From a virus (taxonomy: Duplodnaviria; Heunggongvirae; Uroviricota; Caudoviricetes), in the IMG/VR virus record IMGVR_UViG_2639763115_000001, positions 1 through 12,696 of that record: DNA of 12,696 nt; one strand, written 5' to 3'. The first letter of the stretch is position 1; the number at the start of each line of letters is the position of its first letter. The translations under genes were made by a program, and so were the position numbers. The notes under the pieces are model-generated. The model was not told where the DNA came from. It made no database searches and saw only the letters and a program-made list of their open reading frames with translations. Positions 155-10,847 of the stretch are shown one piece after another.

Positions 155-364
155 ATGGCTTTCATTCCACCAACCATCGACGATGTTAGACATTGCTCTA
201 ACGCTTTATCTGTAGACCCCGCCGAAACCGACGCTGCCCGCGCCATTGCTGAACACTACTCAAAGATATCCAATCAGGAGTACCGCATCACCCAAGACGA
301 CCTGGATGACCTCACTGACACAATCGAATATCTCATGGCCACTAACCAGCCAGACTCACAATAA
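155..364 (+). CDS. Small, highly acidic hypothetical protein (69 aa)
   Basis: ATG at 155 preceded by GTGAGG SD 7 nt upstream. 14 Asp/Glu versus 4 Arg/Lys (net about -10). No family recognised. Confidence 0.5.
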   Translation: MAFIPPTIDDVRHCSNALSVDPAETDAARAIAEHYSKISNQEYRITQDDLDDLTDTIEYLMATNQPDSQ

Positions 365-401
365 ATGCACTAATAAATCTATTATTTTCGTTGGATCCTT
401 C

Positions 402-452
402 TATAATGGTGGCCAACAACTCCCAGTGTAATTCGCTGTGAGTTGTTGGCCA
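402..452 (+). promoter_or_regulatory. Perfect -10 hexamer TATAAT (402-407) followed by a 13-bp perfect inverted repeat (410-422 / 440-452, 17-nt spacer); candidate promoter/operator or 5' UTR stem-loop for the 283-aa gene
   Basis: Read directly: TGGCCAACAACTC ... GAGTTGTTGGCCA. Sits in the 110-nt gap between the two plus-strand genes, 22 nt before the GGAGGAGG SD of the downstream gene. No convincing -35. Confidence 0.4.
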
Positions 453-474
453 TGTCAATTCTGGAGGAGGATCA

Positions 475-1326
475 ATGATAAATTATGTCTACGGCGAACA
501 ACTGTACCAGGAGTTCGTCAGCTTCAGGGATCTCTTTCTAAAAAAAGCTGTTGCACGCGCCCAACACGTTGATGCCGCCAGCGACGGTCGTCCTGTACGC
601 CCGGTTGTCGTTCTGCCGTTCAAAGAAACGGACAGCATTCAGGCTGAAATTGATAAATGGACTTTAATGGCGCGGGAACTGGAACAGTACCCAGACCTCA
701 ATATCCCAAAGACTATTTTATATCCTGTGCCTAACATCCTTCGCGGTGTGCGTAAGGTTACGACCTATCAGACAGAAGCTGTAAACAGCGTCAACATGAC
801 CGCTGGCCGCATTATTCATCTGATTGATAAGGACATTCGCATCCAAAAAAGCGCGGGGTTCAATGAGCACAGTGCGAAATACATAGAGAACCTGGAAGCA
901 ACAAAAGAGCTAATGAAGCAGTACCCGGAGGATGAAAAATTCCGTATGCGCGTACACGGCTTTAGCGAAACAATGCTGCGCGTTCACTACATCTCCAGTA
1001 GTCCTAACTACAATAACGGTAAATCAGTTAGTTACCATGTGCCGCTGTGTGGCGTGTTTATCTGCGATGAAACTCTCCGTGATGGAATCATCATCAACGG
1101 TGAATTCGAGAAAGCAAAATTTAGCCTTTATGACTCCATAGAACCGATCATCTGCGACCGCTGGCCACAAGCAAAAATATATCGCCTGGCAGATATTGAA
1201 AATGTAAAAAAACAAATTGCCATCACTCGCGAAGAGAAAAAGGTTAAGTCAGCCGCATCAGTTACGCGCAGCCGTAAAACCAAGAAGGGGCAGCCAGTAA
1301 ACGACAACCCCGAAAGCGCGCAATAA
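475..1326 (+). CDS. Hypothetical protein (283 aa) with a Lys/Arg-rich C-terminal tail
   Basis: ATG at 475 with strong SD GGAGGAGG. Long clean ORF ending 3 nt before a hairpin terminator. No family recognised by eye. Confidence 0.7.
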   Translation: MINYVYGEQLYQEFVSFRDLFLKKAVARAQHVDAASDGRPVRPVVVLPFKETDSIQAEIDKWTLMARELEQYPDLNIPKTILYPVPNILRGVRKVTTYQTEAVNSVNMTAGRIIHLIDKDIRIQKSAGFNEHSAKYIENLEATKELMKQYPEDEKFRMRVHGFSETMLRVHYISSSPNYNNGKSVSYHVPLCGVFICDETLRDGIIINGEFEKAKFSLYDSIEPIICDRWPQAKIYRLADIENVKKQIAITREEKKVKSAASVTRSRKTKKGQPVNDNPESAQ

Positions 1327-10781: not shown

Positions 10782-10847
10782 ATTGCTCTAATAAAAAACG
10801 TGATGAGTGTACATCACGTTTTAAAAATATGAAATTATTAGAGCAAT
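10782..10847. promoter_or_regulatory. Pair of inverted C1-operator-like sites (10782-10798, plus orientation, 14/17; 10831-10847, minus orientation, 15/17) flanking an 11-bp-stem hairpin (10795-10822) that is a terminator for the upstream gene; putative promoter -35 TTGCTC / -10 TAAAAC on the minus strand
   Basis: Read directly. Outer 12-bp arms ATTGCTCTAATA/TATTAGAGCAAT are perfect inverted repeats. Inner stem AAAACGTGATG/CATCACGTTTT is followed by T6 on the minus strand. Confidence 0.55.

Follow-up and report, generated by a model that had tools for sequence, protein, structure and literature searches.

We propose, with moderate confidence, that the inverted repeat just past the -10 hexamer of Pc1, the promoter of the phage P1 repressor gene c1, acts as plus-strand RNA and not as a protein-binding site, and that its hairpin tips a fold-back which would hide the c1 ribosome-binding site (RBS) on read-through transcripts only. 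On long transcripts from the upstream promoter P1coi (imcA-imcB-coi-c1 mRNA), the hairpin at 409-453 would be the tip of a fold-back of ~87 nt, in which the anti-Shine-Dalgarno (anti-SD) segment AUCCUUCU (390-402) would pair with the c1 Shine-Dalgarno sequence (SD), the spacer and the AUG (465-476). The c1 RBS would be sequestered on these transcripts, and therefore Coi would be made but little C1. Transcripts from Pc1 would begin at about 413-416, within the structure and downstream of the anti-SD, so that the RBS would be open and c1 translated. A remnant of the hairpin would stand at the extreme 5' end of the Pc1 mRNA, as a possible shield against 5'-end-dependent decay. Where Pc1 transcripts start, how far translation differs between the two and whether the hairpin affects stability are inferred here. 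The c1 promoter was already known; what is added is the leader hairpin, which is neither an operator nor linked to a toxin.

The window carries the c1 immunity locus of P1

The window, the whole stretch of 12,696 nucleotides analysed here, is by sequence identity a P1-like phage-plasmid: the E. coli plasmid pLKSZ04 is 100% identical to it, and P1 and P7 are ~97% identical. Because pLKSZ04 is a rearranged multidrug-resistance plasmid, MH422554, a complete 97-kb P1-like genome, was taken in its place as the whole-genome reference. Over positions 340-480, P1 and the window differ at a single position, one loop base of the repeat. Promoter, operator and genes were identified by annotation and homology. 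The two genes of the locus are as follows.

155-364, plus strand: coi, encoding the 69-aa C1 repressor inactivator, aligned to the coi CDS of P1 (AF234172)
475-1326, plus strand: c1, encoding the 283-aa primary repressor of phage P1 (NCBIfam NF041318, phage_rep_C1, equivalog)

The coi alignment places positions 399-608 of the P1 locus (L002, from record AF234172) at 155-364 of the window, an offset of 244. Coi is annotated in P1, P7 and RCS47, and the coi of the window also matches phrog_2079. The 283-aa product scored 608 bits against NF041318 (E = 1.6e-183), is 98.9% identical to P1 C1.100 and carries the RefSeq name 'phage repressor protein C1'. The earlier note had taken the 283-aa gene to be regulated separately from an acidic gene upstream, as expected for a toxic product. 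The toxic product did not survive this identification: the 283-aa product is the C1 repressor, and the acidic gene encodes its inactivator, Coi. Separate expression agrees with published work, in which two promoters, P1coi and Pc1, supply C1 and P1coi alone supplies Coi (PMC8546580), c1 being treated as co-transcribed from P1coi.

The locus is the P1 immC region (Pc1/P99a, Oc1ab/Op99a,b, coi and c1), with its elements at the annotated positions. In this plasmid, an IS1 end at 1-19 cuts off the upstream promoter P1coi from the locus. The c1/coi locus was carried by ~13% of the complete E. coli genomes in our collection. Distant C1-like repressors (Pantoea, Citrobacter, Leclercia, Enterobacter and E. 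coli pEC361_3), at 22-30% identity, come without coi and without the leader hairpin and are therefore uninformative on the structure.

Promoter Pc1 and operator Oc1ab

The promoter elements and the C1 operator were located as follows.

402-407, plus strand: -10 hexamer TATAAT of Pc1, the c1 promoter, formerly P99a (P1 annotation, L002 646-651)
378-383, plus strand: -35 hexamer TCTATT of Pc1, a weak match (P1 annotation, L002 622-627)
364-391, no strand assigned: Oc1ab, the bivalent C1 operator, formerly Op99a,b (transferred from the P1 annotation, L002 608-635)
364-380, plus strand: Oc1a, part of Oc1ab (P1 annotation)
375-391, minus strand: Oc1b, part of Oc1ab (P1 annotation)
413-416, plus strand: predicted Pc1 transcription start, from promoter geometry (6-9 nt past the -10, purines at 415 and 416)

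The internal promoter suggested by the earlier note is real: both hexamers and their distance to the c1 start equal those of the annotated P1 GenBank record, the sequence is identical, and the TATAAT is the -10 of the already known, C1-repressed promoter Pc1. A simple promoter scan misses Pc1 because of the poor -35. The hexamer is not rare in itself, as the window has four TATAAT on the plus strand and two on the minus strand. The start at ~413-416 is a prediction from promoter geometry only.

The Oc1ab sequence is identical to that of P1 and overlaps the Pc1 -35. By hand count, Oc1ab AATGCACTAATAAATCT agrees at 14 of 17 positions with ATTGCTCTAATAAATTT, which we take to be the C1 operator consensus. 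The repeat arms bear no resemblance to ATTGCTCTAATAAATTT. According to the annotation of the P1 record, C1 binds Oc1ab as asymmetric 17-mers.

A hairpin of exceptional predicted stability in the c1 leader

Two further features lie between the -10 hexamer and the c1 start codon.

409-453, plus strand: inverted repeat, predicted RNA hairpin (stem 410-426/436-452, C423.U439 mismatch, loop 429-433)
463-470, plus strand: c1 SD GGAGGAGG, read from the sequence, beginning 10 nt past the repeat

The perfect 13-bp arms TGGCCAACAACTC (410-422) and GAGTTGTTGGCCA (440-452), with 17 nt between them, follow the TATAAT as described previously, and the stem proved even longer. Counted in full, each arm spans 17 nt (410-426 and 436-452) on either side of a 9-nt spacer, and the only mismatch sets C423 against T439. 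With the further pairs 427:435 and 428:434, which RNAalifold places at the apex, the loop shrinks to 5 nt, and G409.U453 can also pair at the stem base. The 22 nt previously given as the distance from the repeat to the SD is in fact the distance to the c1 ATG at 475; the SD is only 10 nt away.

Of 300 dinucleotide shuffles of the window, one contained an inverted repeat with perfect 13-bp arms no more than 20 nt apart. The predicted RNA fold of 408-480 has a free energy of -35.9 kcal/mol (z = -6.0), a value reached by none of 200 shuffles. Over both strands of the complete 97-kb P1-like genome, every other 48-nt local fold is less stable than the repeat hairpin, which reaches -31.1 kcal/mol; the genome-wide mean is -8.3 (sd 3.7).

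The P1 GenBank record, with 535 features, has no annotation over the repeat and none for the anti-SD:SD complementarity. Full-text literature searches returned no mention of a c1 leader hairpin, and the P1 papers covered, among them PMC8546580, mention neither the repeat nor the anti-SD:SD complementarity; the classical immC papers, which lie outside this set, may describe the dyad or mapped start sites. Against Rfam 15, the hairpin had no match at gathering thresholds and only generic hairpin matches of at most 19 bits, far under the cut-offs.

The search for other copies of the half-site, proposed in the earlier note, came back empty for exact copies: TGGCCAACAACTC has no further copy in the window and no other exact copy in the complete 97-kb P1-like genome, where one copy with one mismatch lies unpaired within a coding region. 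A search of both strands of that genome for a trans-acting partner found no second stretch that shares 11 nt or more with the hairpin. A LexA box was rejected by eye, the repeat centre CAG-N9-CTG having the wrong order for CTGT-N8-ACAG. Among 5,426 E. coli genomes, no CRISPR spacer against the hairpin was found as a partial chromosomal match to either of the two alleles described below.

The hairpin changes in sequence and keeps its pairing

Complete E. coli genomes carry the repeat as two main alleles, allele A (P1, P7 and the window; ~356 records) and allele B (RCS47; ~341 records), each in about half of the E. coli P1-like plasmids, and as an inverted-loop variant in 3. Between A and B, 20 of the 45 positions have changed, as against only 0-4 in flanking 45-nt bins, and C1 is ~99% identical between elements carrying the one and the other. 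The distance from TATAAT to TGTCAATTC is exactly 45 nt in all P1-like loci (~200 loci), and the c1 SD is invariant across all P1-like loci collected. No chimeric A/B alleles were seen among the loci compared.

Across the alleles, 91.7% of cells were paired and five pairs had changed on both sides, compared with 0-1 in slid-partner controls. Pair 413:449 appears as C-G, U.G or U-A. RNAalifold recovered the same hairpin helix independently. In our own tally of one-sided transitions, ~11 gave G.U and 2 gave A.C on the plus strand, and allele B folds to -24.5 kcal/mol on the plus strand against -13.5 on the minus strand. The hairpin thus has the properties of a structured cis-regulatory RNA, in that compensatory pairs are kept and the plus-strand fold is the stronger, with the reservation that template switching could mimic covariation. 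These observations favour the second option of the earlier note, a stable 5' stem-loop acting on RNA.

The reservation has a concrete basis. In the inverted-loop variant, the 17 nt between the perfect 13-bp arms are exactly inverted in three E. coli plasmids, which means that the repeat undergoes arm-mediated template switching or inversion, and one variant (L029) is a fully perfected palindrome. Template switching could keep the arms complementary without selection, and the covariation argument is therefore weakened; the G.U bias then rests on ~13 events that are partly non-independent.

In the Cronobacter phage JK004 and in Salmonella plasmids, C1 is 77-79% identical, and the operator and the TATAAT of Pc1 are retained. 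These relatives have an unrelated G+C-rich hairpin in the position of the P1 repeat. Four clades in all have a hairpin here, of unrelated sequence and differing architecture: the stems of the related clades have only 8-13 bp plus an outer 3-6 bp, compared with 17-18 bp with a mismatch in P1, and the outer stem is GUAUAC/GUAUAC in Salmonella as against UAUAA/UUAUA. A scan of genome contigs for further diversity recovered only near-identical P1 loci plus the distant Pantoea group. A metagenome scan with CTAATAAATCTATTTTTTTT gave ~100 stretches, nearly all chance matches to an A+T-rich pattern, and one extra JK004-like locus.

One reading of this pattern, which we regard as quite improbable, is that the hairpin is a fast-evolving, structure-preserving 45-nt cassette whose two deeply divergent alleles are kept apart by selection and not by drift, for example as a specificity determinant for a trans-acting RNA or protein or under sequence-directed pressure from host defence. 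If true, it would add a post-transcriptional layer of P1 immunity on top of promoter-dependent c1 translation. For the adjacent end of coi there is a type I-E CRISPR spacer whose seed region contains allele-linked changes.

The c1 ribosome-binding site is predicted to be occluded on read-through RNA

The two strands of the predicted basal helix flank the hairpin.

390-402, plus strand: anti-SD strand GUUGGAUCCUUCU, in the Pc1 spacer and upstream of any Pc1 start, predicted to pair with 465-476
465-476, plus strand: 3' strand of the basal helix, AGGAGGAUCAAU, covering most of the SD, the spacer and the AU of the AUG (predicted)

The 9-13 nt directly upstream of the -10 are complementary to the c1 SD and AUG. 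DNA positions 394-402 (GATCCTTCT) agree at 8 of 9 positions with the reverse complement of 465-473 (GATCCTCCT), and the odd position is a G.U on the plus strand. The anti-SD strand lies 26 nt or more beyond the stop codon of coi, and its last base is also the first of the -10. In read-through RNA, the pairing probability of 390-402 is 0.63-1.0 per nucleotide and that of the basal helix is near 1, and the helix is part of the minimum free energy structure in all six representatives. In every clade, AUCCUYY is conserved as an island immediately ahead of the -10. The basal helix shows one-sided changes only (pyrimidine to pyrimidine opposite G) and no true covariation, because the SD side is invariant; as the pairing register also shifts by up to 3 nt, there is no single covariation count for it across clades.

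Opening energies were calculated for isolated RNAs and are predictions throughout. Opening the RBS (-16 to +6) was predicted to cost 12.1 kcal/mol on the read-through transcript versus 4.7 on the Pc1 transcript in the window, 13.0 versus 4.8 in RCS47, 10.4 versus 6.4 in JK004, 11.9-12.1 versus 9.2 in Salmonella and 9.4 versus 6.6 in the L096 clade. The predicted difference in occlusion is thus large only in the P1 clade. For the Salmonella and L096 clades it comes to 2-3 kcal/mol, and there the short transcript, too, has a structured RBS. When the 5' end was moved from 388 to 400, immediately upstream of the -10, occlusion was lost stepwise; the loss occurred at the same place in other clades and was weaker in Salmonella and L096. 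Among the 51 SD-bearing ORFs of the complete P1-like genome, c1 ranks first in the difference in accessibility between long and short transcripts, at 8.3 kcal/mol against a mean of 0.18 (sd 1.6) and a runner-up of 4.3.

The hairpin itself contributes ~2-3 kcal/mol to the occlusion when compared with shuffled or CAA linkers of equal length, a modest share, since 4 of 40 shuffles reached the wild-type value. In pCVMN1543, shuffling the anti-SD did not lower the occlusion, and 31 of 40 shuffles reached the wild-type value. Two other roles were considered and rejected. As an RBS 'insulator', the wild-type hairpin gave an unpaired probability of the RBS no higher than shuffled hairpins did, on Pc1 and read-through transcripts alike; as for an anti-SD within the hairpin, the CUCC of the left arm of allele A is missing from allele B.

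The regulatory reading of the earlier note stands in its internal promoter and its separate expression of the 283-aa gene, is favoured in its RNA stem-loop, and falls with its operator and its toxin; the larger structure predicted to pair with the SD and AUG had been missed.

Alternative explanations for the repeat

We consider it rather unlikely that the repeat is only a 5'-terminal stabiliser, which would guard the Pc1 transcript against RppH- and RNase E-dependent decay and secure a steady supply of repressor from a weak autorepressed promoter, with the anti-SD complementarity being fortuitous. Predicted starts 6-9 nt past the -10 do leave only 0-2 nt between the 5' end and the base of a stable hairpin in 5 of 6 representatives, the inner stem of JK004 and Salmonella starts exactly at position 8, a purine in every clade, and ompA and papA are established cases of such protection (references listed in PMC3997798). 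For allele B, however, this holds only for predicted starts at +6 and +7, and with a start at 415-416 its truncated hairpin competes with an alternative fold. Moreover, the stems start 2-4 nt past the -10, upstream of any plausible Pc1 start, yet the pairs there show wobble or compensatory change, which therefore points to a function on longer transcripts. A stabiliser would also leave the AUCCUYY island and the outlier position of c1 among the 51 ORFs unexplained. Processing hairpins of a similar kind are known in T7 and lambda. The repeat separates two cistrons of one phage operon, and its stem, which forms in full length only on read-through RNA, is long, imperfect and marked by a conserved internal mismatch; it could be an intercistronic site of processing or protection, at which a cut by RNase III in the stem or an exonuclease block after RNase E cleavage would give the coi and c1 segments different stability. 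We find this improbable. An RNase III site would be expected to have about two helical turns of double-stranded RNA, conserved among relatives; the stem of 17-18 bp with a mismatch is short for it, and related clades have 8-13 bp plus the outer 3-6 bp. Such a site would in any case be compatible with the fold-back and not exclusive of it.

The exact inversion of the central 17 nt in three plasmids, the perfected palindrome of L029 and a divergence of the repeat far above that of its flanks are what one would expect of a functionless, self-maintaining palindrome, kept complementary by intrastrand template switching in replication and tolerated in the c1 leader. We give this reading little credence, as four clades keep a hairpin in this place although the hairpin sequences are unrelated, G.U changes on the plus strand far exceed A.C, the 45-nt length is fixed in ~200 loci and no chimeric A/B alleles were seen. 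The G.U asymmetry points to RNA and also argues against a role of the repeat as DNA, be it a cruciform or an operator that spans the start site, the latter being the first option of the earlier note; in this reading a dimeric protein would bind the palindrome and control Pc1. The palindrome does cover the predicted start site directly past the -10. C1 operators, however, are asymmetric 17-mers, and Pc1 has its own further upstream, at 364-391; the half-site does not recur in the window and has a single unpaired one-mismatch copy, in a coding region, in the 97-kb genome; alleles A and B diverge at 20 of 45 positions in elements with ~99% identical C1; and the repeat has another sequence, still able to pair, in allele B and in the JK004 and Salmonella clades. 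An operator here is thus very unlikely. Hardly more can be said for an intrinsic terminator or attenuator that would end coi transcripts ahead of c1: a strong hairpin does stand 45 nt past the coi stop codon, but no U-tract follows the stem (UGUCAAUUCUGG), the terminator scan had no match at the site, relatives likewise have no U-run adjoining the stem, and c1 is treated as co-transcribed from P1coi (PMC8546580).

Comparison with known systems

The fold-back proposed for c1 resembles those of T4 gene e and IS10, a likeness drawn wholly by computation. In T4, genes e (lysozyme), soc, 49 and I-TevI have an RBS that is sequestered on early read-through RNA and free on RNA from the late promoter, which is embedded in the DNA encoding the 5' strand of the RBS-sequestering structure (PMC3014915). 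Pc1 likewise sits in the DNA for the 5' strand of the RBS-occluding helix, and only RNA from the upstream promoter is predicted to form that helix. As in the fold-backs of the T4 e and IS10 type, a segment complementary to the SD and AUG lies between coi and the Pc1 start, and the RBS is predicted to be far less accessible on the long transcript, beyond what is seen for other genes. The T4 cases involve late (gp55) promoters, short simple hairpins and temporal control, whereas the promoter in the window is of the sigma-70 type and repressor-controlled. In the window, unlike T4, 62 nt separate the two strands, which are joined through a large hairpin predicted to fold autonomously, the genes are the repressor and anti-repressor of the lysis-lysogeny switch, and the fold-back is predicted from sequence.

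In IS10 and IS50, fold-back reportedly inhibits the translation of transposase on read-through RNA, as is said to have been described by Davis, Simons and Kleckner in 1985 and by Schulz and Reznikoff in 1991. There too, the RBS pairs with bases that precede the element's own transcription start, and external transcripts are poorly translated, as predicted here for c1. The IS elements are guarded against fortuitous outside promoters, whereas the 'outside' promoter of the window is the phage's own regulated P1coi.

Small hairpin-associated inversions, in which a loop flips between short inverted repeats, are known in chloroplast DNA, and quasipalindrome template switching is known in E. coli. 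The inversion of 17 nt between the 13-bp arms in three plasmids is of this kind; it is a mutational by-product and not a function, and it is rare (3 of ~700 records). According to references listed in PMC3997798, 5'-terminal stem-loops protect E. coli mRNAs (ompA and papA) from 5'-end-dependent decay. The predicted Pc1 transcript would resemble them in starting 0-2 nt from the base of a stable hairpin; unlike them, the P1 stem reaches upstream of the predicted start, which would be needless for a pure stabiliser. Compared with the P1 immC record, the repeat and the anti-SD:SD complementarity are the unannotated elements.

Meaning for P1 immunity

P1 is a classical model phage, and P1-like phage-plasmids are frequent carriers of resistance genes. 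The lysis-lysogeny decision of P1 hinges on the ratio of C1 to Coi, and the P1coi transcript encodes both. If c1 is silent on P1coi RNA and open only on Pc1 RNA, P1coi would be net pro-lytic and Pc1 the sole effective source of repressor. In the virC phenotype, constitutive upstream transcription makes the phage virulent, and the fold-back, if real, would give a simple reason for this. It would also change how counts of c1 and coi mRNA are converted to protein activities in quantitative models, among them those that use the measure 'free c1 mRNA = c1 - coi' (PMC8546580).

Identity of the locus and its promoter

Over its first 1.5 kb, the window was 100% identical to the E. coli plasmid pLKSZ04 and shared 95-99% identity with about 700 replicons of E. 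coli, almost all of them plasmids, and about 97% with phages P1, P7, RCS47 and SJ46. The 283-aa ORF (475-1326) encodes the P1 primary repressor C1 (NCBIfam equivalog NF041318, E = 1.6e-183), with 98.9% identity to P1 C1.100, and the 69-aa acidic ORF (155-364) encodes Coi, the C1 inactivator. Judged from these two genes, the window is the immunity region immC of a phage-plasmid of the P1 type and not a toxin locus. The rationale of an earlier note, that the 283-aa gene is regulated separately because its product is toxic, is thus wrong, since the product is the C1 repressor.

The annotation of P1 (GenBank record AF234172, 535 features) was carried over to the equivalent positions of the window.

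Known elements ahead of c1 according to the P1 record
364-391: Oc1ab (former Op99a,b), bivalent C1 operator
378-383: -35 of the sigma-70 promoter Pc1 (former P99a)
402-407: -10 of Pc1

Over 340-480, P1 and the window differ at a single loop base, at which P7 agrees with the window. Given this annotation, the TATAAT noticed before the 283-aa gene is the -10 of Pc1, and both the internal promoter and the regulation of this gene separately from the acidic gene upstream were already established for c1 and coi. The inverted repeat, in contrast, was unannotated in the P1, P7 and RCS47 records, and no mention of it was found in the P1 literature searched, a scope that excluded the classical immC papers. 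What the earlier note picked out is thus the c1 promoter, already known, together with a hairpin in the leader.

The inverted repeat and its alleles

The TATAAT and the inverted repeat are present in the sequence as described, and the repeat is longer than first reported. It has 17-nt arms (410-426/436-452) with one mismatch (C423 opposite T439), and RNAalifold adds two apical pairs, leaving a 5-nt loop. The 22 nt said to separate it from the Shine-Dalgarno sequence (SD) in fact separate it from the ATG; the SD (463-470) starts only 10 nt past the repeat. Of 300 dinucleotide-shuffled versions of the window, one held a 13-bp perfect close inverted repeat; the folding z-score of the region was -6, and no other 48-nt local fold on the two strands of the complete 97-kb P1-like genome MH422554 is as stable as the repeat. 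It is no chance feature. The proposed search for further copies of the half-site TGGCCAACAACTC recovered only the repeat itself in both the window and this genome. The sole other near-match in the genome was one unpaired copy with one mismatch inside a coding region, and neither strand had any other match of at least 11 nt to the hairpin.

The segment from TATAAT to TGTCAATTC was exactly 45 nt long in every one of about 200 P1-like loci drawn from IMG/VR and genomes, and came in two forms, allele A (P1, P7 and the window) and allele B (ATAGGTCAGTAATGACCGGTTTTCTCAGCCGGGCGTTATTGACCA; RCS47). Among complete E. coli genomes, about 356 records carried allele A, about 341 allele B and 3 a third form. 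The alleles differ at 20 of the 45 positions, against 0-4 differences in neighbouring 45-nt bins and about 99% identity in C1, and share one fold shape: a stem of 16-17 bp, one internal mismatch and a 5-nt loop. When 12 distinct variants were aligned without gaps, 91.7% of cells were paired and five pairs were changed on both sides, compared with 0-1 in controls with partners slid by 1-3 columns; RNAalifold recovered the helix independently. By our tally, one-sided transitions gave about 11 G.U pairs on the + strand versus two A.C mismatches, and for allele B the fold reached -24.5 kcal/mol on the + strand but only -13.5 on the other. In Cronobacter phage JK004 and a Salmonella plasmid group, whose C1 is 77-79% identical, the operator and TATAAT are retained, and the hairpin at this place is a different, G+C-rich one. 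From these patterns, the repeat appears to behave as RNA and not as a binding site.

In three E. coli plasmids (NZ_JBVWFV010000002, NZ_CP103660 and NZ_JBWLLS010000002), the central 17 nt between the 13-bp perfect arms (423-439) are exactly inverted, CCAGTGTAATCCGCTGT to ACAGCGGATTACACTGG, and the hairpin still forms (-27.6 kcal/mol). Template switching or inversion mediated by the arms thus does occur at the repeat, and could preserve their complementarity in the absence of selection. The G.U bias, the fixed length and the fact that a hairpin persists across clades nonetheless argue for function.

Predicted pairing of the SD with the promoter spacer

RNAalifold also paired CCUUC, just 5' of TATAAT, with GGAGG of the SD. 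In the folded read-through RNA, a basal helix of 390-402 (GUUG-G-AUCCUUCU) with 465-476 (AGGAGGAU-CAAU) had a pairing probability near 1, and the hairpin (409-453) sits atop it. At the DNA level, this is an outer inverted repeat: 8 of the 9 positions of GATCCTTCT (394-402) agree with the reverse complement of 465-473, and the odd one is again a G.U pair on the + strand. The arrangement was present in the MFE structure of all six representative loci folded, and in each of them UCCUYY, the six bases before the -10, paired with GGAGGA. AUCCUYY is a conserved island within the otherwise variable part of the promoter spacer. Sequence conservation is normally not needed in this part of a sigma-70 spacer. 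As this anti-SD strand lies upstream of any Pc1 start, the basal helix is available only to transcripts from upstream. Each strand of the predicted helix also contains a GATC (Dam) site, at 394-397 in the spacer just before the -10 (retained in P1 and JK004, lost in the Salmonella clade) and at 470-473 between the SD and ATG.

The cost of opening the c1 ribosome-binding site (RBS) was predicted as the energy to free -16 to +6, for the read-through RNA and for a short RNA starting 8 nt after the -10.

Predicted RBS-opening cost (kcal/mol)
Window (allele A): read-through 12.1, short 4.7
RCS47 (allele B): read-through 13.0, short 4.8
JK004: read-through 10.4, short 6.4
Salmonella plasmids: read-through 11.9-12.1, short 9.2
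Representative locus L096: read-through 9.4, short 6.6

When the 5' end was scanned along the window, the predicted cost was 13-15 kcal/mol for ends at or before 388, fell to 11.8 at 392, 9.5 at 396 and 4.7 at 400, and then stayed flat at 4-5.5. The other clades showed the step at the same distance from the -10, though it was lower in the Salmonella group. As an empirical null, the same long-minus-short comparison was made for 51 SD-bearing ORFs of the complete P1-like genome; the mean difference was 0.18 kcal/mol (sd 1.6), and c1 ranked first at 8.3, the next being 4.3. Shuffling the anti-SD lowered the occlusion in most, not all, representatives (0, 5, 2, 31, 0 and 9 of 40 shuffles each reached the wild-type level). 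Compared with linkers of the same length, either shuffled or made of CAA, the hairpin added about 2-3 kcal/mol of predicted occlusion, which is consistent with a role in bringing the anti-SD and SD strands together.

Neighbouring features

Positions 1-19 are the reverse complement of GGTGATGCTGCCAACTTAC, which we take to be the IS1 terminal repeat, and pLKSZ04 has an annotated IS1 fragment just upstream. Homology to P1 begins at 20, inside imcA. In the window's plasmid, a multidrug-resistance region has therefore cut off the upstream promoter P1coi, the operators Oc1d/e and lox from coi-c1. In RCS47, an IS5 element has inserted independently, about 10 bp further in. Downstream, c1 is followed by pacB in P1 and by a terminator-like hairpin (1330-1351) in the window, then by what is left of an ant/KilAC antirepressor gene (1359-1505, - strand; 90% identity to P1 ant1/ant2) and a truncated DUF968 gene. 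RCS47 shares this c1-ant junction.

A 32-nt spacer in chromosomal type I-E CRISPR arrays of E. coli (e.g. strains EC581 and ETEC1701; locus L336, 401-433) equals the coi 3' end plus the start of Oc1a (protospacer 338-369, PAM 335-337). The protospacer follows ATG, which functions as a PAM in type I-E systems. Allele-B lineages carry C340A, a synonymous change at seed position 3, and also CC350-351TT, the latter turning coi codon 66 from CCA to TTA and the Coi C-terminus from ...NQPDSQ to ...NQLDSQ. In most loci the codon 66 change goes together with the hairpin allele, but there are some recombinants in the promoter spacer. In one plasmid, NZ_CP062884 (L338), the PAM is mutated (G337A), the protospacer has several changes and coi contains a nonsense codon.

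At 10782-10847, two inverted copies of ATTGCTCTAATAA, 40 nt apart, match the start of the C1 operator consensus and flank an 11-bp inverted repeat (AAAACGTGATG/CATCACGTTTT). The nearby ORFs correspond, by size and order, to those between Ppp and PmgS in MH422554. The stretch has the look of a further site under C1 control. On other phage-plasmids (L221 and L222; E. coli pEC361_3 and Enterobacter), distant C1-like repressors are without a coi gene and adjoin a Cre-like integrase gene. Between the two genes, about 245-265 nt upstream of the repressor, lies an A+T-rich palindrome with 16-bp arms, CTAACTTTAAATAATGCCAATTATTTAAAGTTAG, which may be a lox-like site.

Proposed control of c1

We propose that P1coi transcripts, which carry imcA, imcB, coi and c1, would fold in a way that hides the c1 RBS and would therefore yield Coi with little C1. 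The anti-SD starts 26 nt past the coi stop codon and would probably be out of reach of a ribosome terminating there. Transcripts from Pc1, whose start site we infer from the -10, would begin inside the structure without the anti-SD strand and allow c1 to be translated. The documented logic of T4 genes e, soc, 49 and I-TevI is the same as this promoter-embedded fold-back. Fold-back inhibition in IS10 and IS50 also follows this logic. The hairpin left on the Pc1 transcript would begin 0-2 nt from the predicted 5' end, a geometry matching that of 5'-terminal stabilisers (references in PMC3997798), and may stabilise this RNA.

That the repeat serves only to stabilise the 5' end of the Pc1 mRNA is unlikely, as this leaves unexplained the anti-SD and the pairs maintained upstream of the start site. 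Cleavage by RNase III or other processing would be compatible with the fold-back, but the stems are short, above all in relatives, and we give such a site only a slim chance. The inversion allele favours a self-maintaining palindrome without function; the strand bias and a hairpin that persists across clades make this improbable. The operator reading of the earlier note does not hold up: the half-site is unique, the sequence has turned over between relatives and the known C1 operator, Oc1ab, lies upstream, so that a DNA operator at the repeat is very improbable. There is equally little to be said for a terminator, as the repeat has no U-tract and no match in the terminator scan.

No annotation seems to exist for the hairpin covariation, the two alleles or the promoter-embedded fold-back. 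All of the evidence is computational; if true, the c1 fold-back would add a further case of control of the T4 e type, and its point of interest is that it is placed in a repressor/anti-repressor switch.
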